Sequence record: MH791413.1
DNA: 64,000 nt
Direction: 5' to 3' (one strand)
Source of the DNA: Escherichia phage EcSzw_1
Positions within the stretch are counted from its first letter, which is position 1; each line of letters begins with the position of its first letter. The notes beneath the pieces were generated by a model. The model was not told the origin of the DNA, did not search any database, and worked only from the letters and a program-made list of their open reading frames with translations. Below are positions 2,765 to 51,909 of this stretch, piece by piece. The position numbers and the translations under genes are program-made.

Positions 2765-2772
2765 GGTTTCTC

Positions 2773-2793
2773 CAAAAGGGGCTTTGCAGCCCC
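2773..2793 (-). terminator. Rho-independent terminator after nrdA
   Basis: Minus strand GGGGCT-GCAA-AGCCCC followed by TTTT. Confidence 0.7.
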
Positions 2794-2801
2794 CTGTTTA
2801 G

Positions 2802-5036
2802 TTAAACTCCACAACCTTCACAGTAAGCATCTTGAAGTGCTGACTTACCAACACCAATACGACTGTTAAGGTAGTACATAGTTTTCATACCAACTGAGTT
2901 AGCATAAATCATGTACTTCAAAGCTTGCTCTAATGATACCTTTTTCGATTTTGAATAGTCAACATAGAAATCTGAAGAGATAGCTTGACCAGTGAATTTT
3001 TGAACAATTGCATAGCAATCAATCATGTCAAAGGTGTCAATATCCCAAGCAATTTCATAGACATACTTCAATTCTTCGTAATCTGGAACGATGAACAGGA
3101 CGTTACCAGTAGCTGACTTCTTGGTTAAGATGAAGTCACGAATTGGGTACAATCCGTTTGTCGTATTAGTTGCCAGTGAAGAACTCTCGTTAGGCATGTA
3201 AGCCTCAAGTACAGAGTTTCTAATACCACTGTTTGCTTTAATACGGTCTGCTAAGTCATCCCAATCATAACGAAGTTTTGCATCGTGTTTTGTATCAATC
3301 TTCCTGTTAGCTGTCTTCGGAGGAACCCAACCTTCAGGATACTTGGTGAACTTCATATATTCAGGTACACCACGTTCTTTTGCAAGTCTTAATGAAGCCT
3401 CATGCAGATAGTAAGAGTGCATCTCTGCGAGTTCATGTAGCTTCGTTTTACCTGCTCTTGAAGAGTAGTTCACGTAGTTCTTCGCAAGGTAATGAGCCAC
3501 ATTCGTAAGACCAATCCCAACAGAACGACGTTTCTGAACGTGGTTACGCATTGACGGATACGGATAGTCCATAAGGTCAATAACGGAGTCAACCATTGCA
3601 AGAGCATAATAAGCAACGTCAGCGTATTCATCTTCTGTGATTCTCCCTGCTACCAGACTAGCCAAGAAGCAAAGAGCAACTTCACCATCTTCTTTAGGTG
3701 CTGTGTAACTGTAAAGGTCACGTTCATCTTCGAATCCGTGAACTGGCAATACAATTTCCATACACAAGTTAGACATTTTCAAAGGTTCTTTAAACGGCGT
3801 GTGAGTGTTAGCATTGTTCGTAAAGAACGGGTACACACGGCCTGTAGCATAACGTTGCTGGATGAACAGCTTGGCAACTTCACGAGCCTTAACACGTTTA
3901 TGCTTAACACCTGAATGAACTGCGTGACCAACTGCCATAGCAAACTCATCAGCAGATGCTGTGTAGAACATGTCATAAAGTTTTGGAGCGTCCTTGTAAG
4001 AGAACAGCAACCAATCTGTATCGTACTGCACACACTGCCAGAAATAGTCATTTGCACCAAATGAATAATCCATCTCATTAATACGCTTAGAAGGAACCGT
4101 TGTAGGGTGCTTCAAACGCAGTAAATCTTCAATCTGCGGGTCTATGGCAGTGTAGAAGTTGTTAGCTGAACCACCACGACTCTTCTGCTTATTGGCCTCT
4201 ACAGCAGCACGTACAAGCTTGTAATAAGGTAGTTTACCCATGTGTTCAATGGTGTTTTGACGAATACCATCACCAATTGTACGGGTCTCCATCAGCATAC
4301 CAATGCCAGCTTGCTTCGTGGTCATATCATAAGCTACCTTAGTAGCAATGCCAAGAGACTCAGCAGTATCATTAGCTTTGATTAAGCAGCATGACGCATA
4401 ACCTGACTTAGTAGCACGTAAACCATTCAGATAAGGCGTAGGAGCGTTAATCTTCAGGTCAGACAGGTAAGTGTACAGTTTGATAACATCTTCCAGTCTA
4501 CGGTGCTTAGGTTGTCTCTCAAAGGCTTTCATAGCCATACCCATAAACATAAATTGTGGAGACTCAAACAGACGACCTGACTTGATATCTCGGATACCGT
4601 ATTTGTCACGGAACTGTTTCAGTACTGCATAACCGTAAGAGATATCTTTTGAGTGAACAATGTGACCTTGTAAATAGTCAATCTCTTGTTCAGTGTAATC
4701 CATGTGTTCCCACAAACCCATCTGCTCCATTTTCATAACGAAGTTAAACAGTTGAGGAACTTTTGTGAAACCACCAAAGGCTTCTTTGTAGATGATGCCA
4801 AGAAGTAATCGACCAGCCATATCAGAGTATTCTTGAGTCTGCTTATCAATACAAACGTCAATCATAGCTTGGTGCATCTCTTTGGTAGAGCAACCTTCAT
4901 AGACACGCTTCATAGCTTCCATAGTTACTTCTGACCAAATGATTCCTCGTTTGTCAGCCCATGAAGCCCATTTGTTTAAACGTTCTGGTTCGAATGGTAC
5001 GATTGTACCGTCAGATTTGCGAATGGTCTTAATCAT
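2802..5036 (-). CDS. nrdA: Ribonucleotide reductase class Ia large subunit
   Basis: 744 aa; N-terminal ATP-cone (IRKSDGTIVPFEPERL), size and C-terminal Cys pair typical of NrdA. Confidence 0.85.
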   Translation of the reverse strand: MIKTIRKSDGTIVPFEPERLNKWASWADKRGIIWSEVTMEAMKRVYEGCSTKEMHQAMIDVCIDKQTQEYSDMAGRLLLGIIYKEAFGGFTKVPQLFNFVMKMEQMGLWEHMDYTEQEIDYLQGHIVHSKDISYGYAVLKQFRDKYGIRDIKSGRLFESPQFMFMGMAMKAFERQPKHRRLEDVIKLYTYLSDLKINAPTPYLNGLRATKSGYASCCLIKANDTAESLGIATKVAYDMTTKQAGIGMLMETRTIGDGIRQNTIEHMGKLPYYKLVRAAVEANKQKSRGGSANNFYTAIDPQIEDLLRLKHPTTVPSKRINEMDYSFGANDYFWQCVQYDTDWLLFSYKDAPKLYDMFYTASADEFAMAVGHAVHSGVKHKRVKAREVAKLFIQQRYATGRVYPFFTNNANTHTPFKEPLKMSNLCMEIVLPVHGFEDERDLYSYTAPKEDGEVALCFLASLVAGRITEDEYADVAYYALAMVDSVIDLMDYPYPSMRNHVQKRRSVGIGLTNVAHYLAKNYVNYSSRAGKTKLHELAEMHSYYLHEASLRLAKERGVPEYMKFTKYPEGWVPPKTANRKIDTKHDAKLRYDWDDLADRIKANSGIRNSVLEAYMPNESSSLATNTTNGLYPIRDFILTKKSATGNVLFIVPDYEELKYVYEIAWDIDTFDMIDCYAIVQKFTGQAISSDFYVDYSKSKKVSLEQALKYMIYANSVGMKTMYYLNSRIGVGKSALQDAYCEGCGV

Positions 5037-14316: not shown

Positions 14317-14492
14317 AATGCCCTCTTTTAAGTACCTATTAAACTTAATCTGTTTTCTTTACGTATTCTATACGTATAACTTTAAAGCTTCTTAAAAGCT
14401 ATTAAAAATCTTTTAAGGGTTTTAAAGAAACTGTATAGTTAATCTGTAAAGGGAGTCTTTTAAGTTAAAACCCACTTCGCAAAGATTAACAC

Positions 14493-14536
14493 CTTGTCAA
14501 GTGAATTGTCAACTTGCTTTTTGAAACTTTTTGCAG
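14493..14536 (+). promoter_or_regulatory. Conserved TTGTCAAGT-N3-TTGTCAAC motif upstream of DNA polymerase gene
   Basis: cTTGTCAAGTgaaTTGTCAACttgctttttg; near-identical copy at 55294-55325. Confidence 0.45.
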
Positions 14537-14573
14537 TAATGTATTGAGTCAATGATTTTGAGAGGGAGTAAAA

Positions 14574-17273
14574 ATGGAAAACGTAGATTTTGAAAACTTG
14601 CACTTGGTAGGTGATACCGAAACTGATGGGTTACTCCTTGAGTTCACAAAAGCACACGTAATGGCATTTGCAGATTACAAAGATGACAGTGACGAACCTG
14701 CTGTGTGGGTCTTCACCGATGAACCTATTCTTGGTCACAAATGCACTAAGTATATTAAAGGTGGTCTTCGTGAAGGTGTAGAGTTTGCTCTTAAGGCAAA
14801 GCGTCTCTGCATTCATAACGGTCTTGGCTATGACTGGTGGGTGTTCAATCACATTGCACCGGACTTATGGAACTTTGACAATCCAAAGTGTAAACCTTGG
14901 GGAGACTTCTTTCAGGATTCTCTTATCCAGTCTCGTGTTCAGTGGATGGATAGACCTACACCGAAAGGTTATAAAGGTGCTCATGGTTTGGCTGCGTGGG
15001 GTGCTCGTGTTGGTGTTCGTAAACCAGAGATTGAAGAATGGGGTGTTTGGAATGCTGATATTCTGAACCGTGTTGTTGAGGATATTCGAATCAACGCCAA
15101 AACTAAACGTGCTCTTGATAACGAATACCTGAAGTTGAAGAAGTGTGGTGTAGATACTTACGAAACCTACATGCGAGCTAAAGAAACATCTTTCTGGATG
15201 AGTCAGCAAGCTATCAACGGTTGGAAAGCTGATATTGAACTTATGCAGTTCCATGTCAAAGAACTTGACAGAATGACTGATGAGTTAGCTGCTGAAGTTG
15301 AGCCTCATCTGCCACCGACTATCAAGACGAAAGGTAAAGTCACTGGTGAAGAGTTTGCAAAAGCTTGGAACGAGTATGTTGAGACATTTGGTAAAGCAGA
15401 TGGTCTGAAGCGCATCACTAAGTATCCAAAAACTAAGTTCCGTCAGCAGGTTCGTAATGGTGAGATGCAGACTTACGCTATCAAACCTTTTGGTAAACCA
15501 ACTACCAAGATTTTCAACATTGAGAAGCGTAACTGCTACACTCCAACTAACACGGTTACTGGAGAAGAGTACAAAGAAGGCTTCGTGGCAATGAAAGATG
15601 CTCGTGCAGTTTGTAACAAGTTGAATGCTGCGATTGATAAGAAGTGCAAAGACTGGAAACCAGTTAAGACCGTGAAGACTGTGAAGTACTACAATAATCA
15701 CGTAGTAAATCACTTTGAACTTGAGTCAAGTCGTTACACAGGTTTGATTGATGCACCTTATACACCAATTGAGTTCGAAGTTTCACGCATGACTCAGGTT
15801 GCGGTTGTGAAGGATTATCTGAAAACTCTTGGCTGGATTCCTGATGACTGGAACTACAAGAAAGATTCTGATGGTCGTCCGGTGAAGGTTTGTCGCTTCA
15901 AAGATAACAAGAAGATGATTCGTAAACATCCGAAATGGCAAGAGATGGTAGACCGTTGCGGATTGAATTACGTTGAGCATGAAGGTGTACAGTACATCGA
16001 ACACAACTGGTCTGTGAAGAAGTACACAGATTTGCTTGAACCTTGCTTGATTCGTACTTCACCGAAACTGACTGAATCTTCTTACGATACGATTGAAGGT
16101 GAACTTGGACAGAAGATTGCGAAGTACTATACTTTGATGCACCGACGCAGAACTATCGAGAACTCAAAGGATGATGAAAAGGGTTGGTTAAACCAGATTC
16201 GTCCAGATGGTCGTTTGAGTGCTGGTGCAATGGTGTTTGGTACTTCAACTGGACGTATGACACAATACGGAATTGTGAACGTACCTTCTGGGGCTGCTGT
16301 TTACGGTGAACCAATGAGGGCAGTCTGGATTTGTGAAGAAGGAGCCAACGTAGTCTCCGTTGATATGAACTCTGCACAGCTTGTTCTACTGTGTAACTTT
16401 ATGGGTGATAAAGAGTTCACAAAAGCGGTAACTCAGGGTAAAGAAGAGATTGAGTTTATCCGTCAGGAAGATGGCAGATACTACTGCAAACACTTTGACG
16501 AATACCTGAATCCAGAAGTTGATAAGTATCTGCGTTATGACTCTGAAAACGACTTGTACGTAGTTTACTCAGGTACTGATGCGCATACACTGAACAGTAT
16601 CTACTTCAGCTTGAACGAAGAACAAGATATCCTGACTTGTCGTATGACTCAGGATGAGAATCTTCTTCACGAAATCAGTAAAGGCCGTAAGAAAGCTAAG
16701 AACGGTATCTATGCGTTACTGTTCGGTGCTGGCGATGAGAAGTTTGCTAAGACGATTAAAGCTGCGACTACTCAGGAAGGTGCATTGACTAAACAGACTT
16801 ACTTTGTTCGCTTGCCGAAGATTAAGAAACTGTTAGATGACTTGGAAGCTGACTTTAAAGCGACTAAGAAAGCACTTGAAGAGGTGTTTGGTAAGACTGC
16901 TGCAATTGCTAAAGGTGGTTTTGTCAAGGTTGCTGGAGCATGGTTGTGGTGTAAGTCTCCACACAAACTGTTGAACTACTTGCTGATGGGTTCAGAAGCA
17001 CAAGTTCAGAATGAAGCAATCAACCTTGCATGTCGTCGTATGATTGATGAAGGTTTGATGAAGTTGAATGGTCGTAAGCCAGCTATCGGTGCTCGTTTAC
17101 TTTGTGCATATCACGATGAAACAAGTTGGGAATGTCCAGAGAGCATGACAGCAGAAGTTAAGGCTGTAACTGACTGGTACTACGGACAAGCTTCTAAGAA
17201 CTTAGGGCTTCGTAAAGAAACTCTGGTAACAGGGACTGGTAAAGTTGGTAAGTCTTGGTTGGAAGTTCACTAA
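14574..17273 (+). CDS. DNA polymerase, family A, with 3'-5' exonuclease domain
   Basis: 899 aa; Exo I motif VGDTETDGL near N-terminus; GAGGGAG SD before ATG. Confidence 0.85.
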   Translation: MENVDFENLHLVGDTETDGLLLEFTKAHVMAFADYKDDSDEPAVWVFTDEPILGHKCTKYIKGGLREGVEFALKAKRLCIHNGLGYDWWVFNHIAPDLWNFDNPKCKPWGDFFQDSLIQSRVQWMDRPTPKGYKGAHGLAAWGARVGVRKPEIEEWGVWNADILNRVVEDIRINAKTKRALDNEYLKLKKCGVDTYETYMRAKETSFWMSQQAINGWKADIELMQFHVKELDRMTDELAAEVEPHLPPTIKTKGKVTGEEFAKAWNEYVETFGKADGLKRITKYPKTKFRQQVRNGEMQTYAIKPFGKPTTKIFNIEKRNCYTPTNTVTGEEYKEGFVAMKDARAVCNKLNAAIDKKCKDWKPVKTVKTVKYYNNHVVNHFELESSRYTGLIDAPYTPIEFEVSRMTQVAVVKDYLKTLGWIPDDWNYKKDSDGRPVKVCRFKDNKKMIRKHPKWQEMVDRCGLNYVEHEGVQYIEHNWSVKKYTDLLEPCLIRTSPKLTESSYDTIEGELGQKIAKYYTLMHRRRTIENSKDDEKGWLNQIRPDGRLSAGAMVFGTSTGRMTQYGIVNVPSGAAVYGEPMRAVWICEEGANVVSVDMNSAQLVLLCNFMGDKEFTKAVTQGKEEIEFIRQEDGRYYCKHFDEYLNPEVDKYLRYDSENDLYVVYSGTDAHTLNSIYFSLNEEQDILTCRMTQDENLLHEISKGRKKAKNGIYALLFGAGDEKFAKTIKAATTQEGALTKQTYFVRLPKIKKLLDDLEADFKATKKALEEVFGKTAAIAKGGFVKVAGAWLWCKSPHKLLNYLLMGSEAQVQNEAINLACRRMIDEGLMKLNGRKPAIGARLLCAYHDETSWECPESMTAEVKAVTDWYYGQASKNLGLRKETLVTGTGKVGKSWLEVH

Positions 17274-17335
17274 TTAATGTTGACAGGGTGCTCATGGAAG
17301 AGTACCTTATGCAACATATCGTATAGGAGAACTCT

Positions 17336-17545
17336 ATGAGCCATCGTGGTCGGACTCACCTTGCAATGATGAAAGGTGCTTCAAAGGAGACTATCAAGAA
17401 CCGTAAGCAGAAGTTGTTTGAGAGAATGAACAGACTCATTGACAACACTTCTCTTTCTGGTAGTGAGAAGGTTTTCTTGAAAGGAAATCTGAAGAGTATT
17501 GCACAGGAACTTATGGATATTGAATTTTGGAGAAACCAAAAATGA
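17336..17545 (+). CDS. Hypothetical protein
   Basis: 69-aa ORF with SD. Confidence 0.45.
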   Translation: MSHRGRTHLAMMKGASKETIKNRKQKLFERMNRLIDNTSLSGSEKVFLKGNLKSIAQELMDIEFWRNQK

Positions 17546-17754
17546 CTTATGAAGAAGCTGTTGAAGCAATGAAGCAAGGTAAGAAAGTTCGTAACGAGAA
17601 CTTCACATCTGATGAGTTCTTTGAAATGAAAGATGGAAAGATTGTCTGTGAAATGGGTTACCCGATGGCTTCATGGTATCGTGGCCTTGATTGGCAGAAA
17701 TCTGGGTGGAGTATTGTGCAAGATTCTCCAAAAGCATCTGACTTATTCTTTTAA
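17542..17754 (+). CDS. Hypothetical small protein
   Basis: ATG 17542 with GGAGA SD; MTYEEAVEAMKQGKKV... Confidence 0.45.
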   Translation: MTYEEAVEAMKQGKKVRNENFTSDEFFEMKDGKIVCEMGYPMASWYRGLDWQKSGWSIVQDSPKASDLFF

Positions 17755-17764
17755 GGAAAACCCT

Positions 17765-17971
17765 ATGCAAGTTTTAGTAAACTATATCTACCGTTATGAT
17801 GTTGTTCACTCCACTACAACGGTAGCTCAACGTAATCCAATTGTGCCACGAGAAGGTGAATGGGTTCGTATTGAAGGTTGGACTTACACTGTAGAGAACA
17901 TCATTCACAAGTTTGATGTTGCTGGTGATGTTCAGGTTATTGATGTAGAAATTGGTGGGAAGAGAAAATGA
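17765..17971 (+). CDS. Hypothetical small protein
   Basis: ATG 17765 after AAGGAAAA SD; longer ORF-track call overlaps previous gene. Confidence 0.4.
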   Translation: MQVLVNYIYRYDVVHSTTTVAQRNPIVPREGEWVRIEGWTYTVENIIHKFDVAGDVQVIDVEIGGKRK

Positions 17972-18159
17972 GTAAAGAAGATAAATTCAAGAATGCTGTA
18001 AGAACTGAAGATGGAAAAGTTGAGTCTTTCACTCTTAAAGTTGGTGGCAAACCATTCCATTGCCGTTGTGGAGCAAACTGTTTCCATAAACCTAACAAAG
18101 ATGATTTAGAACTTTACACATGTAACTCATGTGACACTTGGTATCATTCTGGAGATTGA
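17968..18159 (+). CDS. Small Cys-rich (zinc-ribbon-like) protein
   Basis: 63 aa with CRCG...C...CNSC. Confidence 0.45.
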   Translation: MSKEDKFKNAVRTEDGKVESFTLKVGGKPFHCRCGANCFHKPNKDDLELYTCNSCDTWYHSGD

Positions 18160-18162
18160 GGA

Positions 18163-19262
18163 TGACAATTCTGTACAAACAAAACAAAGATGGCTCTTTT
18201 AACGTCTGGTCATGCGTTGCCGTAGGTGACAAAGTTGTTACCACGTATGGTAAAGAAAATGGCAAGATGATGTTTGAAGAGTACACAGCAGAACCGAAAA
18301 ACATCGGTAAAAAGAATGAGCGTAATGCTGAACAGCAAGCTCTCTTTGAAGTTGCTGCTAAGTATAAGAAGCAGGTTGACCGTAAAGGTTATGCTTACAC
18401 AAAATCTGAAGCAGAGAACACTGAAAAGGTTGGTGTACAACTCGCACAAGATGCTGCAAAGGTAAGTCATGCAAAGTATTTGAAGTTCCCTGCTGATGCT
18501 CAACCTAAGCTTGATGGTGTTCGTTGCCGTATATCAAGAGACACGGACTCAGTGAACTTCACAGCTTATTCCCGTGAAAATACTGTGTACAACGTACCTG
18601 AAGAGTTGATTCCAGACTTGCTGCTGATGATTAAATGCCACCCACAAGTTCAAGATTTTGATGGTGAAATCTATGCTCACGGATGGGATTTAGAAGATAT
18701 TGTATCTATGATTAAGAATGCTGACAATCCAGACCGTCACCTACTTAAATTCTACTGGTATGATATCTGCGACAAAACTAAAACTTGGCCTGAGCGTCGT
18801 GAAATCATTGATAACTCGCCAATTGTTGAACTCGGTGATGCTTGCAGGGTTGTACCTGTTCAAACTATCCGTGTTAACTCTTGGGAAGAGTTTGACAAAG
18901 CCCATGATAATTGGGTTAAGCTGAAGTTTGAAGGGGCAATGTACCGTTCCATCTCAGCAGATTCTTTCTATGAGTGTGGTCACCGTTCATACTTCCTGAT
19001 TAAGCATAAGAAGATGCACACGGAAGAATTTAAAGTAACTGGTGTGAAAACTGATAAGCGTGGTCATGGTAAATTCGTTGTAGAGACACTCCCTAACGTC
19101 TTTGTGGATGTTTCATGGAAAACTACCCATGAGAAGAAACAGTATCTTGCTGAACACCCTGAAGAGTTTATCGGGAAACCTTTGACGGTTCAGTTCCAGA
19201 AGATGACTCGTAAGGGGTCTTTGCAGTTCCCTGTTGGTCTCGTTATACGAGATTATGAATAA
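18163..19262 (+). CDS. ATP-dependent DNA ligase
   Basis: Adenylation motif KLDGVRC; about 366 aa; ATG 18163 with GGAGA SD. Confidence 0.8.
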
Positions 19263-19268
19263 AAGTTG

Positions 19269-19296
19269 TTGACATACACTCTCCGGTAGTTATACT
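19269..19296 (+). promoter_or_regulatory. Sigma70-like promoter bracketed by a 9-bp inverted repeat
   Basis: TTGACA (19269-19274), 16-nt spacer, TATACT (19291-19296); IR CCGGTAGTT (19283-19291) / AACTACCGG (19320-19328). Confidence 0.55.
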
Positions 19297-19346
19297 AGCA
19301 ATATAAAATTTGATATAGGAACTACCGGATGAGTTAGGAGAAGAAA

Positions 19347-19727
19347 ATGAAAAAGGTTATGGTAAGTGTCATTCTGGCAACTCTGAGTTTTGGTGCATCA
19401 GCTATGACGATGCCTGAAGCAGACTTTAGTAAGGTCTCTATAGAGGCTTGTCAGATTGTTCGTAAAGTCGTAACAGATGCTGGAGAGTTGACTAAACCGT
19501 TATCTTCTCCAACCGTCATGGAAATGTCTGACCGTATCACTGACTACAATTATCGTGTGATGGCAGATTACTACGAAGCTGTTTCTGATGCTATGGTCAC
19601 TCAAGACATTGACTTGCTTGATGACAAAGACATTGAGAAGGTTGAAGATACCAAACGTGGAATGATGGATGAAACTTTCAAAGGTGTTCATTATTTTGTT
19701 GAAAAGCGTACTTGTGTAGGTCTATGA
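19347..19727 (+). CDS. Secreted/periplasmic protein (signal peptide), hypothetical
   Basis: N-terminus MKKVMVSVILATLSFGASA; strong promoter-like site upstream. Confidence 0.55.
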   Translation: MKKVMVSVILATLSFGASAMTMPEADFSKVSIEACQIVRKVVTDAGELTKPLSSPTVMEMSDRITDYNYRVMADYYEAVSDAMVTQDIDLLDDKDIEKVEDTKRGMMDETFKGVHYFVEKRTCVGL

Positions 19728-19728
19728 T

Positions 19729-19932
19729 ATGAAGAAGAATCATTGCAAGAAGAACTATGGAGAAGTGCTTGACGACGAAGGTCATGTCATCTTCCGAGTT
19801 TACTGTGCAGATGACTCTGAAGTAGGTAAAGCACTTGATGACTATATCAATGGTACTCGTGAAAACGTCAGAGCAACAAACATAGATTCATTGATTGACA
19901 CTTCCAGAAAACGGAGGAAGAAGGATGAATGA
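19729..19932 (+). CDS. Hypothetical small protein
   Basis: 67-aa ORF. Confidence 0.4.
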   Translation: MKKNHCKKNYGEVLDDEGHVIFRVYCADDSEVGKALDDYINGTRENVRATNIDSLIDTSRKRRKKDE

Positions 19933-20224
19933 AGTCTTTGACCCTTACGCCCCACAAGATAAGTGGGAAGCTGATAGAGAGTATGAGATGGAAAGTTATA
20001 TCTGTCCAATGGATGTAGACGAAATGAGAGAGTTCGTTGCATTCCGTTTTGAAAAAGAAATTGAGAAAAGAAAACTTTCTCAGGCACAAGTTGCAAAAAT
20101 TTGTGATATCTCTCAAAGTCGTGTTTCCAACATTGTCAATGGTACTGGAAAGATTACCCTTGAATACATGTTGAAAGCTTGTGAAAAACTTGGTGTTAAC
20201 TTCAACTTAAGGCTGTCAGATTAA
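19925..20224 (+). CDS. HTH (XRE-like) transcriptional regulator
   Basis: LSQAQVAKICDISQSRVSNIVNG HTH pattern; ATG 19925 with GGAGGAAGAAGG SD. Confidence 0.55.
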   Translation: MNEVFDPYAPQDKWEADREYEMESYICPMDVDEMREFVAFRFEKEIEKRKLSQAQVAKICDISQSRVSNIVNGTGKITLEYMLKACEKLGVNFNLRLSD

Positions 20225-20225
20225 T

Positions 20226-20585
20226 ATGAAACGTGAAAATGCAATCATCAAAGGTAACTTCGCAATTGGCTTCTATGGTAAACCTACTGAAGCTGAAAAG
20301 GTGTGGGGTCATGAGATTCTTGAAGAGATGATTCCAAAACTCCAAAAAGGAGAAATTAAGCATTCTGAAAAGAATCGTGTGAAAGGCTATATGGCAATTG
20401 GTTCAGCTATATCCAACATCAAACTTGAGACGACATGTGCAAAAGATGTTCGTAACTCGTTTATCAAGGAACTCTTCAACAACCTTGATGGTGTAGATGC
20501 TACCGCTATCTGGCTTGATGTTGATGGTGCTAAGTATACAACTTTCGTATTTAAAAATGAGGATATCAAATGTCTCTTCCCGTAA
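20226..20585 (+). CDS. Hypothetical protein
   Basis: 119-aa ORF. Confidence 0.5.
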   Translation: MKRENAIIKGNFAIGFYGKPTEAEKVWGHEILEEMIPKLQKGEIKHSEKNRVKGYMAIGSAISNIKLETTCAKDVRNSFIKELFNNLDGVDATAIWLDVDGAKYTTFVFKNEDIKCLFP

Positions 20586-21070
20586 AAATTGACTTGTTCT
20601 TTGGATACAATCTGATGACAGGGTGTATGCTTAGTCTTCCAAAGTCTCCTTATCGTACTGAGAAGGGTGCTGTGAAACGTGCTGCACACTACAATAATGA
20701 CTTAGGTCGTTTGCAGACGATTTACAAGTGGCTTGAAGAAGATGGTCGAGTAAATGAGTACTTCCATCAGCTTCGTATGGCTAACGAAGAAAATAAGATG
20801 GGCTATGAACTGTTCCCACGTCTTTACAAAGTGACTTCACCAACTTCTCAAACTTGGAATGAGAAATCTATTGAGGGTTACAAAAAGGTCACAATGTCTC
20901 CGTTTAGTAGTGGTGCAGAGTTTGAGAAGCTACGTGAGATAATTTATCAGACTGTTGCAAAGCGTGTTGCAAAGGGTCTTTCTTATAATGAAAAGATTGA
21001 CTGGAACACTCAAAAGGTTATACAATTCTTTGCATACGATAATGACAAACAAACTTTTGTAGAGGTTTAA
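20570..21070 (+). CDS. Hypothetical protein
   Basis: 166-aa ORF. Confidence 0.5.
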   Translation: MSLPVKIDLFFGYNLMTGCMLSLPKSPYRTEKGAVKRAAHYNNDLGRLQTIYKWLEEDGRVNEYFHQLRMANEENKMGYELFPRLYKVTSPTSQTWNEKSIEGYKKVTMSPFSSGAEFEKLREIIYQTVAKRVAKGLSYNEKIDWNTQKVIQFFAYDNDKQTFVEV

Positions 21071-21071
21071 C

Positions 21072-21590
21072 ATGAAGATTGGAAACAGCTTAACAGAGCC
21101 AGAAGCAATTCTGCTTAAGGGTGTTATCAAAGAACATCTTAAAAATCGTAGACTTCAAGAGGGCACAATCCTTATTGAGACAAACTACGAAGCTGGAACG
21201 ATTGAGTTTCTTGACGAAGATACTGGTGATGCACTTTGCCTTTTGCCAACTCACCTCTTCACTACTGAGTTTCGAGATTCTAAATCAATCTCTGTGAAGC
21301 TGGTTCCAAGCATTGAGTTGTATGAAGGTATGCAATACCCACGTAGCTTCAAAGCTTTACTTAACATCTTCATAGATGATATTGTAGATTTAGTAAGGCC
21401 AGAAGCTGGTGAGTATGTAATCACTGCTGAGTGTCAGAATAGCAGCTACATCACTCTTGCTGGCAATCTTTCAACGATGAACTTCTTAGATTTCATTCCG
21501 AAACACTTTGAAGACTTCCTTTCATCGTGTGGTGATGACCTTGATTTCATTGTAAAATTGGAACAAGAATATAAGGTGAATAAGAAATGA
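21072..21590 (+). CDS. Hypothetical protein
   Basis: 172-aa ORF. Confidence 0.5.
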   Translation: MKIGNSLTEPEAILLKGVIKEHLKNRRLQEGTILIETNYEAGTIEFLDEDTGDALCLLPTHLFTTEFRDSKSISVKLVPSIELYEGMQYPRSFKALLNIFIDDIVDLVRPEAGEYVITAECQNSSYITLAGNLSTMNFLDFIPKHFEDFLSSCGDDLDFIVKLEQEYKVNKK

Positions 21591-21856
21591 AAATCTTTAA
21601 AGTTGAACACTGTTACATGCAGAGTGGTGAGCCAATTCGTTGTCCTCATTGTGGTTGTACAGATTTTCAAGGTGAGGTTACAGATATCGTCTCTGGTCAT
21701 GTAGCAGAAGAGTATACTCGTTGCCGTGGATGTATGAAGATTGTTTCATTTTGGGCTTACGGAAGTTATGAGCCACATCCACATGTTATTTATCATCCAG
21801 TAAAAGTTGTTAAGAATATCATCAACTGGCTTATTATTAAAGGGTTTTTCAAATGA
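21587..21856 (+). CDS. Small Cys-rich protein
   Basis: 89 aa with CPHCGC...CRGC. Confidence 0.45.
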   Translation: MKIFKVEHCYMQSGEPIRCPHCGCTDFQGEVTDIVSGHVAEEYTRCRGCMKIVSFWAYGSYEPHPHVIYHPVKVVKNIINWLIIKGFFK

Positions 21857-22398
21857 TTCGTTTAGTGTTTGCAAGTGGTCGTAAAGGTGAGTTTGGCACT
21901 CCTGATGGGATGCCTTGGGAACGTAACCGTGAAGACATGAAAGAGTTTAAAAAGCTGACTCAAAACCAGCTTGTAATCATGGGTAATGAGACTTTCAAGA
22001 CTCTTGGACGTAAACCTTTACCAAATCGTGAGAACATGATTCTGTCAAACAACCTCCCATATTACGGGATAGACTTTGATAATGACGGTTTTGTTATTGC
22101 GAAAGCTGACCCAGATTCTTTCGGTGCATTCTTGAAGAAAATTGACAGCCAGATTGATGAAAATGTCTGTGTGATTGGTGGTGCAAACATCTTAAAAGCA
22201 GCTTTACCATTTGCTGATGAAGTTTACCACACAGTTATCTATGAAATTACTAAAGAGCCAACTGTGTATCTTCCTGAAGAGGGTTTCTTTGAGTATTTAC
22301 ATGAGCCTGAACTCTTTGCTAGAATACAAGCTAAACCTCTGGATGATAAATCTGGAGTGGTAAACTTCTATGTTCCACAAGTAAGAGGACGATTCTGA
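21853..22398 (+). CDS. frd: Dihydrofolate reductase
   Basis: 181 aa; DGMPW and VIGGANILKAALPFADE resemble phage/bacterial DHFR. Confidence 0.75.
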   Translation: MIRLVFASGRKGEFGTPDGMPWERNREDMKEFKKLTQNQLVIMGNETFKTLGRKPLPNRENMILSNNLPYYGIDFDNDGFVIAKADPDSFGAFLKKIDSQIDENVCVIGGANILKAALPFADEVYHTVIYEITKEPTVYLPEEGFFEYLHEPELFARIQAKPLDDKSGVVNFYVPQVRGRF

Positions 22399-22399
22399 T

Positions 22400-23296
22400 A
22401 TGTCACAAGCAGATGTAAGTTATAAAAATATCCTGAACCACGTTTTGACAGTTGGTGAGCAGCGTAAAACCCGAACTGGTTCTGTAATTTCAACGTTCTC
22501 GCCTCCAGAGTTTCGTTTTGATATGCGTACTGGTTTCCCTTTACTGACGTCTAAACAGGTTCTGACCAGACAAGTTATAGGGGAAGCTTTATGGTTCTTG
22601 AATGGTGAGAATAAACTTGGTCATCTTCGCTATCGTACTTGGGGAGAAAACGATGGGGAGCGTTGGACAATCTGGACAAATGATTTTGAACGTTGGCTTA
22701 AAACAACATATGCAAGCGAGCAAGATTGGCTAGATGATGCAGGTGGACGTATCTACGGTGTACAGTGGAGAGCCTCAGAAGGTCATGGTGGCGTTACAGT
22801 TGACCAGCTAGACAATCTGATTACCAAGATGAAAAAGTCTCCTACAGACCGTTACATGCTGGTTAATGCTTGGAATGCTGCTGATATCTCAGCTAATGCA
22901 ATGGCTTTACCACCTTGTCATGTGCTTTTCCAGATTTACATCTCAAATACTGGTGAAGTTGATTTAAAATGGTATCAACGTTCTGTAGACAGCTTCTTAG
23001 GTTTACCGTTTAACATTGCGTCTTATGGTTTTATCTTGGAAGTGCTTTGTAAGATGACTGGATACACGCCTCGTTATCTGATTGGTACTTTGGGTGATAC
23101 TCAGATTTATCAGAACCATATGAATCAGGTATTCCAGCTTTTAGGTAATGAAGAGTTTCCTGCACCAAAGTTTGAGATTGTTCAAGATTTGAAATGTCTG
23201 GATGACCTCAAACATATGACTGCAAGTGACTTTATCGGCGGTTTCAAAGACTATCGACATGCAGGGAAGATTGAAGCTCCCTTGTCAGTAGGTTGA
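22400..23296 (+). CDS. thyA: Thymidylate synthase
   Basis: 298 aa; catalytic ALPPCHVLFQIY motif. Confidence 0.85.
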   Translation: MSQADVSYKNILNHVLTVGEQRKTRTGSVISTFSPPEFRFDMRTGFPLLTSKQVLTRQVIGEALWFLNGENKLGHLRYRTWGENDGERWTIWTNDFERWLKTTYASEQDWLDDAGGRIYGVQWRASEGHGGVTVDQLDNLITKMKKSPTDRYMLVNAWNAADISANAMALPPCHVLFQIYISNTGEVDLKWYQRSVDSFLGLPFNIASYGFILEVLCKMTGYTPRYLIGTLGDTQIYQNHMNQVFQLLGNEEFPAPKFEIVQDLKCLDDLKHMTASDFIGGFKDYRHAGKIEAPLSVG

Positions 23297-47322: not shown

Positions 47323-47398
47323 TGGAGCGTCGAAAGGGAGTCGAACCCTCATAATCCTGTTTTGCAGACAGGTACATAGCCATTTCTGTCATCGACGC
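47323..47398 (-). tRNA. tRNA-Cys (GCA)
   Basis: Hand-folded cloverleaf: acceptor GCGTCGA/TCGACGC, anticodon loop CTGCAAA, T-loop TTCGACT, CCA encoded. Confidence 0.75.
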
Positions 47399-47405
47399 AT
47401 TAAAT

Positions 47406-47498
47406 TGGAGGAAGATACCAGACTTGAACTGGTACGCCGATTTCTCGGTTACTGACAGTTTAGCAAACTGTTCCCTTACCTTTTAGGGTTAATCTTCC
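47406..47498 (-). tRNA. tRNA-Ser (GCT), class II
   Basis: 93 nt; acceptor GGAAGAT/ATCTTCC; anticodon loop TTGCTAA; long variable arm. Confidence 0.75.
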
Positions 47499-47500
47499 AA

Positions 47501-48235
47501 TTATTTGTTCAAGGCATCCTTCATTTCTGGAGTTGCAATTGAATCAATCACGCCAGTTTTACAAGCATCATCAAACCAGTCTGGTAAGACACCTGCAAGG
47601 AAACCATTAATATTCGTTTTCAAGTAATCAGCAATTAACGCTGCTTCATCTGCAATCATCTGAGTGACCTCATTAGTGTATGCAGTAATCTTAGCAATGC
47701 CCTGATTAATCGCTGTAACGGCTTGTGAGGCTAAGGAAGAGATAGTGTCTAGTCCTTTGTCGATTGCGTCTTTTAAGTCGCTTAGAATGCCATTCACAGT
47801 GTCTATGGAGGTGTTAATCAAATCCATAGCTTGTTGACCGTACTCTGTAGCTACTCCCATGATTCCACTAAACGGTGTACAACCAACTTGTTCTCCTGCT
47901 GCACCCATAACGTTAGAGTAACCTTTAGCTACCTGCATACGTGATGAGAACTCATCTACAGAAGTCTGACCGTATTGAGTCAGTGTGTTAGTTGTCGTTG
48001 TAGTGCTTCCAAGGCTCGTTGAGAAGCTACTTAACAAGGCTGTAGTCAAACCAGCAGCAATAAGTTTATCTTTTACTGTAGGGTCTGATACCGAGCTAAT
48101 AGAGCTTACTAATGAAGTAGAAGCGGCAATTGTGCCACCAAGGATTGCTGCACCAGTAATAAGGGGGTTGGAAAACCCGTTACCGGATTTCAGGAGATTA
48201 AAAATCTCTTTACCTTGTTCTGTCATCTCTTTCAT
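47501..48235 (-). CDS. Hypothetical Ser/Thr/Ala-rich protein inside tRNA array
   Basis: 244-aa ORF. Confidence 0.5.
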   Translation of the reverse strand: MKEMTEQGKEIFNLLKSGNGFSNPLITGAAILGGTIAASTSLVSSISSVSDPTVKDKLIAAGLTTALLSSFSTSLGSTTTTTNTLTQYGQTSVDEFSSRMQVAKGYSNVMGAAGEQVGCTPFSGIMGVATEYGQQAMDLINTSIDTVNGILSDLKDAIDKGLDTISSLASQAVTAINQGIAKITAYTNEVTQMIADEAALIADYLKTNINGFLAGVLPDWFDDACKTGVIDSIATPEMKDALNK

Positions 48236-48252
48236 TAAGCACCTTTTGAAAT

Positions 48253-48329
48253 TGGCGGGTTAGTGGGATTTGAACCCTCTTCTCATGTTTTTCAGACACG
48301 CGCTTTAACCATATAAGCTACTTAACCCA
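48253..48329 (-). tRNA. tRNA-Phe (GAA)
   Basis: Anticodon loop CTGAAAA; T-loop TTCAAAT; 3' register uncertain by 1 nt. Confidence 0.65.
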
Positions 48330-48336
48330 TTAAATT

Positions 48337-48413
48337 TGGGGTGACCTACGGGAATCGAACCCGTATAGACCATGTTCACAGCATGGGTCATTATCCATTT
48401 ATGATAAGGCCAC
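48337..48413 (-). tRNA. tRNA-His (GTG)
   Basis: Anticodon stem-loop CCATG-CTGTGAA-CATGG; T-loop TTCGATT. Confidence 0.7.
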
Positions 48414-48444
48414 ATGTAAGGACTCTCGTAAGAACCCTTAGAAG

Positions 48445-48520
48445 TGGCAGCAGCGTAAGGATTTGAACCTTAATCTTTCAGCTTCAGAGGCTGGAGCATT
48501 GCCAGTTATGCTACACTGCT
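48445..48520 (-). tRNA. tRNA-Gln (CTG)
   Basis: D stem GCAT/ATGC; anticodon loop CTCTGAA; T arm TAAGG-TTCAAAT-CCTTA. Confidence 0.65.
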
Positions 48521-48527
48521 ATTAATT

Positions 48528-48606
48528 TGGTACTCCATATCGGATTCGAACCGATACATAACACAGATTTTAAGTCTGGCCTCTCTGCCAATTGGAGTAA
48601 TGGAGC
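48528..48606 (-). tRNA. tRNA with Leu anticodon TAA but short (7-nt) variable region
   Basis: 79 nt; anticodon CAGA-CTTAAAA-TCTG; D loop AATTGGCAGAG; A73; no long variable arm. Confidence 0.55.
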
Positions 48607-48608
48607 AT

Positions 48609-48685
48609 TGGCGGGGGATGTTGGAATTGAACCAACTTCTTCGATTTCAAAGACCGAGGTTTTAACCTTGTAAACTAATCCCCTT
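48609..48685 (-). tRNA. tRNA-Gln (TTG)
   Basis: Anticodon stem-loop TCGGT-CTTTGAA-ATCGA; T arm GTTGG-TTCAATT-CCAAC. Confidence 0.65.
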
Positions 48686-48692
48686 TAAATCT

Positions 48693-49250
48693 TTACTTTC
48701 TTAGTGGATGAATAAAGAATGCCAACATAATTCTTTCCCTTGAGAATGCTCTTTCTTCTGGGACAACACTTTTAAGTTTCCATCCAACATAAATTCTCCA
48801 GTAAAACTGTTTACCAAAGACTTTAATTGATGGGATAAAAGCGAATAATCCCCAAGCATTACTATTCCACATTAGGAGATAACCTGTCTGATTATCTTCA
48901 GGGTTAGAACTTACGTTGATATTACCTTTCCACTTAGTAACATCTTTTACATCTCTTCCCAATACATGGTAAGAGAAGTTATAAGCTTTGTTTCTCCAGA
49001 GCCATCCAACTCTCTGCATATAAACACCGAGCTTGCCAATCTTTCGAATCTTAGCCCACCGTTCAACGTGACCTTTGTCACCGTCAATCGGGTTGTCATA
49101 AGTCTCCATCCATCTGAATCCAAAAGGCAAGTGACCTTTCTTCTCACTGTAGAATGGAACTACAAAGGGTGCTAAGATTACTGCTAAGATTGCTGCAAAT
49201 GGCTCTAGCAAAGCTAGGAAAATCCATGAAGCATACTTCAAATATCTCAT
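48693..49250 (-). CDS. Membrane protein, hypothetical, inside tRNA array
   Basis: 185 aa with N-terminal hydrophobic helices. Confidence 0.5.
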   Translation of the reverse strand: MRYLKYASWIFLALLEPFAAILAVILAPFVVPFYSEKKGHLPFGFRWMETYDNPIDGDKGHVERWAKIRKIGKLGVYMQRVGWLWRNKAYNFSYHVLGRDVKDVTKWKGNINVSSNPEDNQTGYLLMWNSNAWGLFAFIPSIKVFGKQFYWRIYVGWKLKSVVPEERAFSRERIMLAFFIHPLRK

Positions 49251-49269
49251 TTAAATAGCCTCTTTAAAT

Positions 49270-49346
49270 TGGTGCAGAATAAGGGATTCGAACCCCTAAC
49301 AAACAACTTCGTAGGTTGCTGCTCTATCCATTTGAACTAATTCTGC
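49270..49346 (-). tRNA. tRNA-Arg (ACG)
   Basis: Acceptor GCAGAAT/ATTCTGC; anticodon loop CTACGAA; T-loop TTCGAAT. Confidence 0.7.
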
Positions 49347-49508
49347 AATGTTCTTTTGAGATTCCTGTCTAGCTCTCTTCTTATCTCTTCTGAGAAAGCG
49401 TCTACGATGGTCTGTACGCCACTTGTAGTAATCTTCTTCACCATCGTGAGAAGCACAGCAACCACAACTTGCAATTTCAACTTTACCGTGTCTACCATAA
49501 GGCTTCAT
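49296..49508 (-). CDS. Small Cys-rich basic protein, questionable (3' end overlaps tRNA-Arg)
   Basis: 70 aa with AGGAGA SD before ATG 49508, but last 50 nt overlap tRNA 49270..49346. Confidence 0.3.
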   Translation of the reverse strand: MKPYGRHGKVEIASCGCCASHDGEEDYYKWRTDHRRRFLRRDKKRARQESQKNIAELVQMDRAATYEVVC

Positions 49509-49524
49509 AGGAATCTCCTAAAAT

Positions 49525-49602
49525 TGGTGTTCCAAGACGGATTCGAACCGTCACTAATACAAGGTTTGAGCTTGCATCCTCTGCCAATTGGGATACTGGA
49601 AC
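49525..49602 (-). tRNA. tRNA with Leu anticodon CAA but short variable region
   Basis: 78 nt; anticodon GCAAG-CTCAAAC-CTTGT; D loop AATTGGCAGAGG; A73. Confidence 0.55.
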
Positions 49603-49604
49603 AT

Positions 49605-49679
49605 TGGTACTCGCTGAAGGACTTGAACCTTCTTCACCAACTTGTAAGGATGGGGCTTTACCGTATAAACTAAGCGAGT
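49605..49679 (-). tRNA. tRNA-Val (TAC)
   Basis: Acceptor ACTCGCT/AGCGAGT; anticodon loop CTTACAA; T arm GAAGG-TTCAAGT-CCTTC. Confidence 0.65.
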
Positions 49680-49775
49680 ATGAAAAGAGGTCTGAAGTTG
49701 TGCCGCTAACTCAACTCCGTGGAATTTGTTACGGTCTTCAGTTGACTCAAGCGGTCTTTCACTCGACCTCTGAAT
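49680..49775 (-). ncRNA. Structured non-tRNA spacer element (candidate small stable RNA)
   Basis: 96-nt gap between two tRNAs; nested inverted repeats GAGGTC/GACCTC, TGAAG/CTTCA, CCGT/ACGG; no T-loop. Confidence 0.3.
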
Positions 49776-49852
49776 TGGTGCTGCTCACAGGAGTTGAACC
49801 TGCATCTCCATCCTTACAAGGGATGTGTAATAGCCAATTATACGAAAGCAGC
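49776..49852 (-). tRNA. tRNA-Thr (TGT)
   Basis: Anticodon stem-loop CATCC-CTTGTAA-GGATG; T-loop TTCAACT. Confidence 0.7.
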
Positions 49853-49858
49853 ATTATT

Positions 49859-49933
49859 TGGAGCATCCAGAGGGAATCGAACCCTCAACCTCAGTTTGGA
49901 AGACTGTAATTTTCCCGTTTAAACTATGGATGC
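49859..49933 (-). tRNA. tRNA-Gly (TCC)
   Basis: Acceptor GCATCCA/TGGATGC; anticodon loop CTTCCAA; T arm GAGGG-TTCGATT-CCCTC. Confidence 0.7.
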
Positions 49934-49939
49934 ACTAAT

Positions 49940-50015
49940 TGGTGGAGAAGCAGGGAATTGAACCCTGTACTTAAGTTTGCAAAACTTATGTTTTAACCAT
50001 GTAAACTACATCCCC
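49940..50015 (-). tRNA. tRNA-Ala (TGC)
   Basis: Anticodon stem-loop TAAGT-TTTGCAA-ACTTA; T arm CAGGG-TTCAATT-CCCTG. Confidence 0.7.
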
Positions 50016-50021
50016 GATATT

Positions 50022-50097
50022 TGGTACAGGTGGAGGGAATTGAACCCATCGTCTTACTGATTAAGAGTCAGCCGCATAACCATTTTGCTACACCTGC
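50022..50097 (-). tRNA. tRNA-Lys (CTT)
   Basis: Anticodon GCTGA-CTCTTAA-TCAGT; T stem weak (GGG/CCC plus two mismatches). Confidence 0.55.
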
Positions 50098-50104
50098 ATT
50101 AATT

Positions 50105-50181
50105 TGGTACACCTAGAGAGAGTCGAACTCACACTGAACAGATTCTAAGTCTGCTGCCTCTTCCAATTGGGCTATAGGTGC
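50105..50181 (-). tRNA. tRNA with Leu anticodon TAG but short variable region
   Basis: 77 nt; anticodon GCAGA-CTTAGAA-TCTGT; D loop AATTGGAAGAGG; A73. Confidence 0.55.
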
Positions 50182-50182
50182 A

Positions 50183-50635
50183 TTAAATCAAATGTCTTGA
50201 GAATTGACTATGACAATTTGGACACAAGAATCTTAAGTTTTCTTTTCTATCGTCTAACCAGTTTTCGTTGATATGGTCAACATCAAGTGTTAGTGGTTTA
50301 CCTAACCATTCTGGTTGCTGTCCACACTTAGAGCATTTGTATTCAACACCAGAAGCTATTAAAGCCCTTCTAAGTTGTGTTGACCTTGCTCTTTCACCTG
50401 ATTCACGAAGAATCAAGATTTCTTCAGGCTTTCTTTTTGGTAAAGTTTTAACCTTACCTGCCTTTTGTCCAAGGAAATGAGAAGTATCTAACTCAAACTT
50501 CTCTATAACACGTTTCAAGTGTGACTGAGAACCACCTGCTGGTTTTCTTCCAAGCTTGATAAGTACTTCTCTAAATGATACTGATTCTTTCACTAAAGGT
50601 TCAAGAACCTCTTTAGTCAAACTTCTACGTGTCAT
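50183..50635 (-). CDS. HNH homing-type endonuclease
   Basis: C-terminal LDVDHINENWLDDRKENLRFLCPNCH; inside tRNA array. Confidence 0.7.
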   Translation of the reverse strand: MTRRSLTKEVLEPLVKESVSFREVLIKLGRKPAGGSQSHLKRVIEKFELDTSHFLGQKAGKVKTLPKRKPEEILILRESGERARSTQLRRALIASGVEYKCSKCGQQPEWLGKPLTLDVDHINENWLDDRKENLRFLCPNCHSQFSRHLI

Positions 50636-50893
50636 GTGTCAATCTCCCATTAAATCTTTGTAGAGAACTGCTAAGACGCCAAAGCAACAATGGTATCAAA
50701 TGCCTTAACAATTCTCTAAAAAGACCTAACTGGTCTTTGCATAGTCTTGTTTAATCCGGTGACTAGAACCTTTGGAGAGCTTGATATTATCTCTTCTCCG
50801 TGACACCTACTAGGTGCTTTACTGTGCGTGTACGACAATACACGAGGGAAACCGAACGCAACGACGAAGTAGCGCAGGTCTTAAATCTCATTA

Positions 50894-50983
50894 GGCGGTA
50901 GATAAAGGAGTCGAACCCTCACCGTATCACTACAATGGCAACAGTTTTCAAGACTGTTTGGCTTCCATTAGCCGCTATCTACC
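50894..50983 (-). tRNA. tRNA-Ser (TGA), class II
   Basis: Acceptor GGTAGAT/ATCTACC; anticodon ACAGT-CTTGAAA-ACTGT; long variable arm; 3' CCA not encoded. Confidence 0.65.
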
Positions 50984-50996
50984 CCTAATAAGACTT

Positions 50997-51079
50997 TGGC
51001 ATGGGACGGAGGATTCGAACCCCTTTGAGTAAGTTTTGGAGGCTTACGCTCATGCCTTAGAGTCTTAACATCGTCCCAT
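50997..51079 (-). tRNA. tRNA-Trp (CCA), atypical extended D region
   Basis: Acceptor ATGGGAC/GTCCCAT; anticodon loop CTCCAAA as in E. coli tRNA-Trp; T-loop TTCGAAT; D region about 7 nt longer than canonical. Confidence 0.5.
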
Positions 51080-51221
51080 ACTACAATTCGAAGCTTACCG
51101 TATTATCACAACACTGTAAAGCCCCTTCTCAGATTTTTTACATGTTCTGGAAAACATGAGATACAGACCACCTCCATACAGGAAGACCCGCTAAGGTCGT
51201 CTAAGTAATCTGCTAACTATT

Positions 51222-51289
51222 TGGCAGTCAAGGTAGGAGTCGAACCTACTTACTATCGAAGGTAGCTAACCTTCAGTAACTTTCCGACT
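51222..51289 (-). ncRNA. Degenerate tRNA-like element lacking a D arm
   Basis: 68 nt; canonical T arm GTAGG-TTCGACT-CCTAC and CCA; hairpin GAAGG-TTAGCTA-CCTTC; no D arm. Confidence 0.35.
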
Positions 51290-51348
51290 TTCGTACACCT
51301 GCTAACATGTATTCAGATGGCTTACTAGTGTTGTCTTGACCATTAAAC

Positions 51349-51425
51349 TGGCACACCCTACAGGACTCGAACCTGTAACTCAGTGCTTAGAAGGCACTTG
51401 CTCTATCCAATTGAACTAAGGGTGC
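51349..51425 (-). tRNA. tRNA-Arg (TCT)
   Basis: D arm GTTC-AATTGGATA-GAGC; anticodon AGTGC-CTTCTAA-GCACT; T arm ACAGG-TTCGAGT-CCTGT. Confidence 0.75.
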
Positions 51426-51750: not shown

Positions 51751-51753
51751 CAT

Positions 51754-51830: not shown

Positions 51831-51909
51831 ATAATAAGTTGCCCTTTGGAGAAGAGCTATTGAGTGGGTGTTTCCAGCCGCGCAGGTGTTCTTCAGTTAA
51901 GGGCGAATT

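Follow-up and report, generated by a model that had tools for sequence, protein, structure and literature searches.

A doubled –35-type hexamer at the two strand-switch regions of a Felix O1-type phage genome points to probable paralogous leftward promoters

A tandem pair of TTGTCAA half-sites recurs, nearly unchanged, ahead of two rightward transcription units of an Escherichia phage, which raises the question of what these sites do and which genes they serve. A first-pass annotation of the window (the whole 64,000-nt stretch of DNA analysed here) had proposed a promoter or operator shared by the two rightward units, one of them headed by the DNA polymerase gene. The genome is that of Escherichia phage EcSzw-2 (MH791400.1; 86.7 kb; Ounavirinae, genus Suspvirus), whose positions 23381–86752 are 100% identical to window positions 1–63372. 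Most of the last 628 bases of the window (63373–64000) continue elsewhere in that record, 63414–64000 matching positions 2770–3307 with a small gap rather than the record's position 1. Because of this continuation, the first 2.7 kb of MH791400.1, which is flagged UNVERIFIED and contains N's, seem to be placed differently from the window and from phages SUSP1, Sf18 and Silverhawkium, all three of which share the window's arrangement across the junction.

The window comprises four transcription blocks: a leftward one (minus strand) extending to 14316 and devoted to replication and nucleotide metabolism; a rightward one (plus strand, 14574–23296) with DNA polymerase, ligase and thymidylate synthase; a second leftward one (minus strand, 23336–55164) with lysis, tail, head and terminase genes as well as 24 tRNA genes, the latter being the sole RNA family members returned by an Rfam search; and a second rightward one (plus strand) from 55412. 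This layout therefore leaves exactly two divergent intergenic regions, 14317–14573 (site 1) and 55165–55411 (site 2). The rightward block after site 2, previously taken to begin at 55555, in fact opens at 55412 with an ORF for a conserved protein of 53 aa (PHROG 8138).

Each of the two divergent regions holds one copy of the tandem. The pattern TTGTCAAGTNNNTTGTCAAC occurs exactly twice in the whole 86.7-kb genome, at 14494–14513 and 55295–55314, where the 20-mers read TTGTCAAGTGAATTGTCAAC and TTGTCAAGTCATTTGTCAAC, respectively; no more tandem copies were found in the other 23 kb outside the window. One hundred dinucleotide-preserving shuffles yielded zero exact matches to the 20-mer, and TTGACA-N6-TTGACA on the minus strand had 2 matches vs. 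0.02 expected. As the single units are unenriched (27 vs. 21.8 for the heptamer TTGTCAA and 68 vs. 70 for the hexamer TTGACA), it is the tandem arrangement alone that is non-random, and the shuffles together with the conservation described below rule out a chance origin. The sites are alike outside the 20-mer too, sharing a flanking A/T-run and a box, GAGTCTTTTAAGT, at 14453–14465 and 55252–55264. The first-pass annotation was thus right about two near-identical, and as it turns out conserved, tandem sites. Its half-site distance of about 13 bp needs correcting to a start-to-start period of 12 bp at both sites, with 10 bp in one metagenomic relative, and it was on the 13 bp that the argument from roughly one helical turn had been built.

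On which strand should the motif be read? The TTGNCAA unit is palindromic except at its centre and therefore presents TTGTCA on the plus strand and TTGACA on the minus strand, matching the –35 consensus at 5/6 and 6/6 positions, respectively. This centre base, which tells the readings apart, does not vary among the copies or the relatives. Taken from the minus strand, the motif is GTTGACAAnnnACTTGACAAG and contains two perfect sigma-70 –35 hexamers spaced 12 bp. At site 1, in the gap between the leftward gene (14316) and the DNA polymerase gene (14574), the minus strand of 14494–14513 reads GTTGACAATTCACTTGACAA. Its distal TTGACA (14507–14512, 6/6 consensus), the proposed leftward –35, stands 18 bp from a candidate –10, TAATCT (14483–14488), which is preceded by TGt as in an extended –10; the second TTGACA (14495–14500) falls within the spacer, about 6 bp upstream of that –10. 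A UP-element-like A-tract on the same strand (CTGCAAAAAGTTTCAAAAAGCAAG, 14513–14536) corresponds to what had been described earlier as a 'ttgcttttt' tail. At site 2, between the leftward gene (55164) and the rightward ORF (55412), the minus strand of 55295–55314 reads GTTGACAAATGACTTGACAA and repeats the layout: distal TTGACA as the proposed –35 (55308–55313), second TTGACA within the spacer (55296–55301), candidate –10 TAGCCT (55285–55290) at 17 bp from the –35 and about 5 bp downstream of the second hexamer, and an A-tract (CAACTGAAAAAGTTG, 55314–55328; formerly the 'aacttttt' tail). The A/T-rich stretches CAAAAAGCAAG and GAAAAAGTTG, a putative UP element, stand just upstream of the distal hexamers.

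At 17 ± 1 bp from the distal hexamer, both sites thus carry a hexamer with T1, A2 and T6 of the –10 consensus (18 bp at site 1, 17 bp at site 2). Overall, these leftward –10 hexamers agree with TATAAT at just 3/6 positions, and a simple promoter scanner called neither leftward promoter, the –10 matches lying below its threshold. Given this architecture, we consider it fairly likely that the tandem motif forms the central part of two leftward-firing promoters, paralogous to each other and dependent on the host sigma-70. On the minus strand, the order would be A-tract, –35 TTGACA and, after 17–18 bp, a weak TAnnnT –10, with the A-tract offering a UP-like contact to the alpha subunits of RNA polymerase. 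Transcription would start near 14476 and 55278, implying leaders of about 160 and 114 nt for the leftward genes that begin at 14316 and 55164. The site 1 promoter would head the replication and nucleotide-metabolism operon starting at 14316, and that of site 2 the operon starting at 55164 and covering the 24 tRNA genes as well as the structural genes. Sequence, statistics, conservation, family resemblance and orientation of the tandem sites have been demonstrated here; that transcription runs leftward, that sigma-70 uses the hexamers, where the starts lie and any role of the second hexamer are inferred.

The original proposal, by which the TTGTCAA units serve the rightward units either as –35-like hexamers (5/6) or as an upstream activator site, e.g. 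of the Pho-box type for a response regulator, has points in its favor. At site 2, TTGTCA (55307) lies 17 bp from TGcAATAGT, an extended –10, with 9/12 matches; at site 1, the motif abuts the conserved TTGCTT-N17-TAATGT; and the direct repeats loosely recall the PhoB box. However, the distance from the motif to the nearest rightward –10 is 23 bp at one site and 17 bp at the other, and relative to the best-conserved rightward candidates the motif shifts by about 22 bp (site 1, about –56 to –37; site 2, about –78 to –59), whereas its geometry relative to the leftward –10s is constant (17–18 bp). The T-run that sets the spacing at site 2 varies among relatives (17–19 bp), and for a Pho box the period is wrong (12 instead of 11 bp), the half-sites agree at 5/7 positions and a fitting TATAAT exists in Felixounavirus only. 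With the perfect consensus and the A-tract on the opposite strand, a rightward function of the tandem is improbable. What stands of the earlier interpretation is that conserved regulatory DNA marks both strand-switch regions; its tie to the rightward units is unsupported.

Nevertheless, both divergent regions probably fire rightward as well, as far as candidate promoter sequences can tell. For the DNA polymerase gene, the candidate at site 1 (plus strand, 14514–14542) combines TTGCTT (14514–14519) and, after 17 bp, TAATGT (14537–14542), so that the polymerase start codon would follow after a leader of about 24 nt; in relatives, TTGCTT and TA(A/G)(T/G)GT are retained. Its –35 (from 14514) is 1 bp from the leftward –35 (up to 14512), the two being arranged back to back as in Pectobacterium phage Arno18, and because of this proximity leftward and rightward occupancy of site 1 should be mutually exclusive. 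At site 2 (plus strand, 55307–55366), the candidates are the above TTGTCA-N17-TGcAATAGT (55307–55335) and TTGACT-N17-TACCAT (55338–55366). With 9/12 matches each, they score no better than shuffles; the latter is invariant in all relatives.

Conservation was assessed in alignments of 30 IMG/VR contigs per site, which reduced to 22 distinct sequences for site 1 and 19 for site 2 and covered Felixounavirus, Suspvirus and Mooglevirus. All 24 of the 24 hexamer columns were invariant in these sequences, i.e. distal and second TTGACA at both sites, while between the hexamers 10 of 12 columns varied (4/6 at site 1 and 6/6 at site 2), against a background column invariance of 65% (site 1) and 81% (site 2). 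The –10 elements change within their expected bounds: relatives carry TAATCT or TAGTCT at site 1, keeping T1, A2 and T6, and TAGCCT, TAGGCT, TAAGTT or TAGTGT at site 2, where T1, A2 and T6 are invariant and positions 3–5 free.

More distant Ounavirinae have a single hexamer, with its geometry, location and strand unchanged. Upstream of the homologue of the site 2 gene, Erwinia phage M7 possesses one TTGACA-N16-TAAAAT on the same strand, and its site 1 equivalent is TTGACA-N17-TACATT, with Harbringer being identical; in Arno18, TTGACA-N17-TAGGCT and a rightward TTGACC-N17-CATACT stand back to back. In the uncultivated 84.7-kb contig IMGVR_UViG_3300045988_028620, the hexamers are just 10 bp apart (TTGACAGAACTTGACAAG), but a TAATGT again lies 17 bp from the distal one. 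As the single-hexamer relatives and this contig retain the –10 geometry of the distal hexamer, comparison of the sequences identifies it as the ancestral –35 and the proximal hexamer as an addition within the spacer. An alignment-based search of IMG/VR for further distant relatives returned the same contigs and no others. As a separate observation, the site 2 region (55165–55560) shows 90–95% identity across genera in 222 of 252 records, compared with about 85% for flanking and polymerase coding DNA, and 55336–55400 is almost invariant. Since conservation of this intergenic region exceeds that of the coding DNA, it would imply dense function beyond one promoter.

The leftward reading gains further from a genome-wide family of similar sites. 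The pattern AAAA[AG]-N2-5-TTGACN occurs at 22 sites in the genome vs. 2.4 ± 1.5 in local shuffles, and the distal hexamers of sites 1 and 2 are both members. Leaving these two aside, 19 of the remaining 20 sites are co-oriented with the local genes, and 17 of all 22 have a TAnnnT at 16–18 bp; other promoter-like sites with the A-tract context include actgaaaaatattttaaaaaagttc-TTGACA and ctggtaaaaagttttaaaaagggta-TTGACA. Taken literally, the refuting outcome named in the first-pass annotation, a lack of more copies at operon starts, holds for the tandem form, of which there are only two; the single-hexamer form of this promoter family is found about 20 more times, co-oriented with genes. The partial copy reported earlier at 63933–63949 does exist and is one of the 22 family sites (MH791400.1 position 3246): its minus strand reads CTAAAAAATGAC-TTGACA, an A-tract with one hexamer (63934–63939). 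However, a TAnnnT sought at 16–18 bp from this hexamer was absent, and the hexamer is not conserved, being replaced in Shigella phage Sf18 with the flanks kept. The site faces the 3′ end of the rightward block and is probably not a third copy, but lies outside the tandem device. Beyond the window, at MH791400.1 position 1422 (minus strand), we noticed a third candidate promoter with a hexamer in its spacer, TTGACG-ATACCCC-TTGACA-ATAG-TACATT, which has a 13-bp period and an A-tract upstream. Inspection of the gaps of the structural module for late promoters revealed no recurring motif.

Promoters at these positions have been predicted in relatives. In Felix O1, promoter P41, TTGACA(N15)TATAGG (21515–21541), was predicted by Whichard et al. 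(2010; PMC3185647); it begins at the distal hexamer of the site 2 homologue and points toward gene 41, which is leftward in the window. The same authors reported no other such sequence in the 40–41 or 96–97 regions (PMC3185647); yet the Felix O1 96–97 region, the homologue of site 1, has the same tandem motif despite this published negative. The record of phage AYO145A (KR014248.1), whose announcement lists 16 promoters recognized by the host polymerase, carries host-type promoter annotations at both sites, on what is the minus strand in the window: TTGACA-N18-TAATCT (65801–65830) at site 1, starting at the distal hexamer, and a promoter laid over the tandem at site 2. On account of the P41 and AYO145A annotations, the promoter identity is already on record and it is the doubled hexamer that is new; these annotations are consensus-match predictions, and neither mentions the second hexamer, its conservation or the paralogy of the two sites.

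Felix O1 also offers a glimpse of timing. Neither a phage RNA polymerase nor a phage sigma factor was found in its genome (PMC3185647). By RT-PCR, the flanking genes 41, 42, 96 and 97 were maximal at 25 min, not at 5 min, with ORF 96 already detected at 5 min (PMC3185647); these data are coarse, as head genes are listed at 5 min in that very table. A maximum at 25 min is unlike what a strong constitutive host promoter predicts, and in this counts against the leftward-promoter reading; it is compatible with some delay or modulation. Literature searches turned up neither mapped transcription starts nor RNA-seq results for the Ounavirinae.

What, then, might the second hexamer be for? It is as invariant as the distal one, is missing from the single-hexamer relatives and plays no part in the standard sigma-70 promoter architecture. 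It does not form a second conventional promoter because no usable –10 follows: 16–18 bp downstream we found AAGTGG, ACACTT, TACTTA and ACATGG, none of them –10-like and none conserved. Nor are TTGA-like hexamers in spacers a general habit of these genomes, since TTGACA-N6-TTGATA at 53272, which looks similar, belongs to a hairpin and has TTAATA in Felix O1. Strong promoters of the TTGACA-N17/18-TAnnnT form are predicted at this position and at about 53180, between the 24-tRNA cluster (minus strand, 47326–53128) and the gene directly upstream of it, which encodes a 423-aa protein (minus strand, 53299–54567; DUF2828 and DUF7788; PHROG 'RNA-binding protein'); one of the two promoters is embedded in a hairpin annotated as a terminator in Felix O1.

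We tentatively suggest that the second TTGACA is an additional docking site, occupied either by region 4 of sigma-70 in a non-productive, competing register or by a clade-specific phage protein. Its occupancy could tune or time both promoters and their overlap with the divergent rightward ones, so that the two sites might form a 'double –35' class that times both leftward operons and arbitrates between divergent promoters.

A related possibility, compatible with the promoter reading and able to account for the second hexamer, is that the motif is an operator at which a dimeric protein represses or switches the overlapping divergent promoters at both sites. Two invariant half-sites around a freely varying 5–6 bp core, the restriction of the tandem form to the two strand-switch regions, the nearly palindromic nature of each TTGNCAA (as might suit a symmetric DNA-binding dimer) and the middle-time peak of the flanking genes in Felix O1 would all agree with this. 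A candidate protein is encoded in the DNA polymerase operon (plus strand, 19925–20224): a 99-aa Xre-type helix-turn-helix (HTH) protein with an HTH_3 domain (6.5e-12) and a putative recognition helix conserved across genera. Of the phage records, 258 have it and likewise 258 have the site 1 region, and the two sets break down identically by organism. Its distribution among phage records is confined to the clade of Felixounavirus, Suspvirus and Mooglevirus, and no Erwinia or Pectobacterium phage, i.e. the single-hexamer group, gave a match at E ≤ 1e-5. Because protein and tandem co-occur within one clade, however, this counts as a single evolutionary event and is a lead, not evidence. An HTH-gene search in IMG/VR, by a method that needs exact peptide words, did not return the contig with 10-bp spacing. 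Independently of the operator question, the 99-aa protein has a weak, sub-threshold match to sigma-70 region 4.

Several properties of the sites argue against such an operator. A symmetric dimer would call for T/A at the two centres or leave them free, whereas the units are direct repeats and both have T there on the plus strand; what is conserved coincides exactly with the sigma-70 hexamer; a rigid dimer could hardly accommodate the 10-bp spacing of the metagenomic contig; and the leaders hold better Xre palindromes, e.g. CTTAAAAGgCTTTTAAG. On balance, we regard an Xre-type operator as rather unlikely.

The leaders downstream of the proposed leftward promoters have features of their own. CTTWWAAG-type 8-mers (CTTTTAAG, CTTAAAAG, CTTTAAAG and CTTATAAG; also CTGTATAG and CTGTAAAG) number 44 in the genome, where 11.6 are expected, and cluster at 11–13 bp spacing in both leftward leaders (14325–14465 and 55185–55265) as well as at the left end of MH791400.1 (1–405). 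They are conserved across genera, similar words exist in Erwinia and Pectobacterium relatives, and they look like phased protein-binding sites. The site 2 leader further contains an inverted repeat at 55212–55232 (AGATATC-cagaaa-GATATCT) and, at about 55186–55202, the 17-bp palindrome mentioned above, both invariant in 19/19 distinct relatives and resembling operators or leader RNA hairpins. In the site 1 leader, a direct and palindromic repeat, TACGTATtcTATACGTAT (14361–14380), is kept in most relatives. Folding of the leaders was unconvincing, with z-scores of –0.8 (site 1) and –2.1 (site 2).

With repeats of this kind in phased, AT-rich clusters next to both tandems at strand-switch points, one might also think of a transcription-activated replication origin of which the motif is a part, the more so as the GC skew switches sign at both sites. 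Yet the skew tracks gene orientation throughout the window, even at 23 kb, where there is no motif, and being confounded in this way is uninformative on origins. The repeats recur, moreover, in early intergenic regions as well as at the genome terminus, and initiator binding is unsupported, all of which makes an origin very unlikely indeed.

Felix O1-type phages are widely used in Salmonella and E. coli typing, biocontrol and therapy, and the 2010 Felix O1 genome paper states that the ordering of gene expression is unknown (PMC3185647). The present analysis indicates that their strand-switch regions carry paralogous leftward host-type promoters (predicted), set within a genome-wide family of about 20 A-tract and TTGACA sites, with a conserved extra –35 box at the two strand-switch promoters only. 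If the proposal of a 'double –35' class were true, it would provide a first handle on temporal control in Felix O1-type phages. The promoter itself is ordinary and has already been annotated by consensus in relatives.

How do the tandem sites compare with known regulatory systems? The Pho box bound by PhoB, CTGTCAT-N4-CTGTCAT, has an 11-bp period and replaces the –35. The tandem is like it in repeating, in direct orientation and at roughly a helical turn, a heptamer that contains TGTCA. This is a resemblance only: the repeats recur every 12 bp (every 10 bp in one relative), the half-sites match at 5/7 positions and that strand has no consistent –10 at the distance needed. We therefore rejected a Pho box or other OmpR/PhoB-type site, which requires 11 bp (10–11 bp in the family) where both sites have 12 bp, and likewise a Pho-type replacement of the –35, which should stand about 10 bp upstream of a same-strand –10 and for which a TATAAT fits only at site 1 of Felixounavirus, the window having TGAAAC and Mooglevirus lacking it. 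Readings as IHF, Fis or MotA-box sites were discarded by eye for misfits of spacing or consensus. Middle promoters of phage T4, with a MotA box and AsiA-remodelled sigma-70, are similar in placing a phage-specific box upstream of a TAnnnT –10 and in forming a temporal class, but differ in that the box here is the host –35 consensus and sits at about –24 to –18, not at –30.

Parallels also exist among promoters with overlapping elements. Like gal P1/P2 and lac P1/P2, the tandem would offer two polymerase-docking registers inside one footprint, and like lambda PR/PRM, the divergent promoters of site 1 stand back to back, with their –35s 1 bp apart; in gal, lac and lambda, however, each register has its own –10 and a regulator (CRP, cI/Cro), whereas the second register here comes without a –10. 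With E. coli sigma-70 promoters that have UP elements, such as rrnB P1 and the early promoters of T5 and T7, the sites would share a consensus –35, a 17–18 bp spacer, a TAnnnT –10, an A/T tract just upstream of the –35 and use by a lytic phage that lacks its own RNA polymerase. Compared with a standard sigma-70 promoter, the two sites stand out by a weak –10 (3/6) and a second consensus –35 within the spacer; apart from this conserved second –35 box, they belong to an ordinary, already annotated promoter class.
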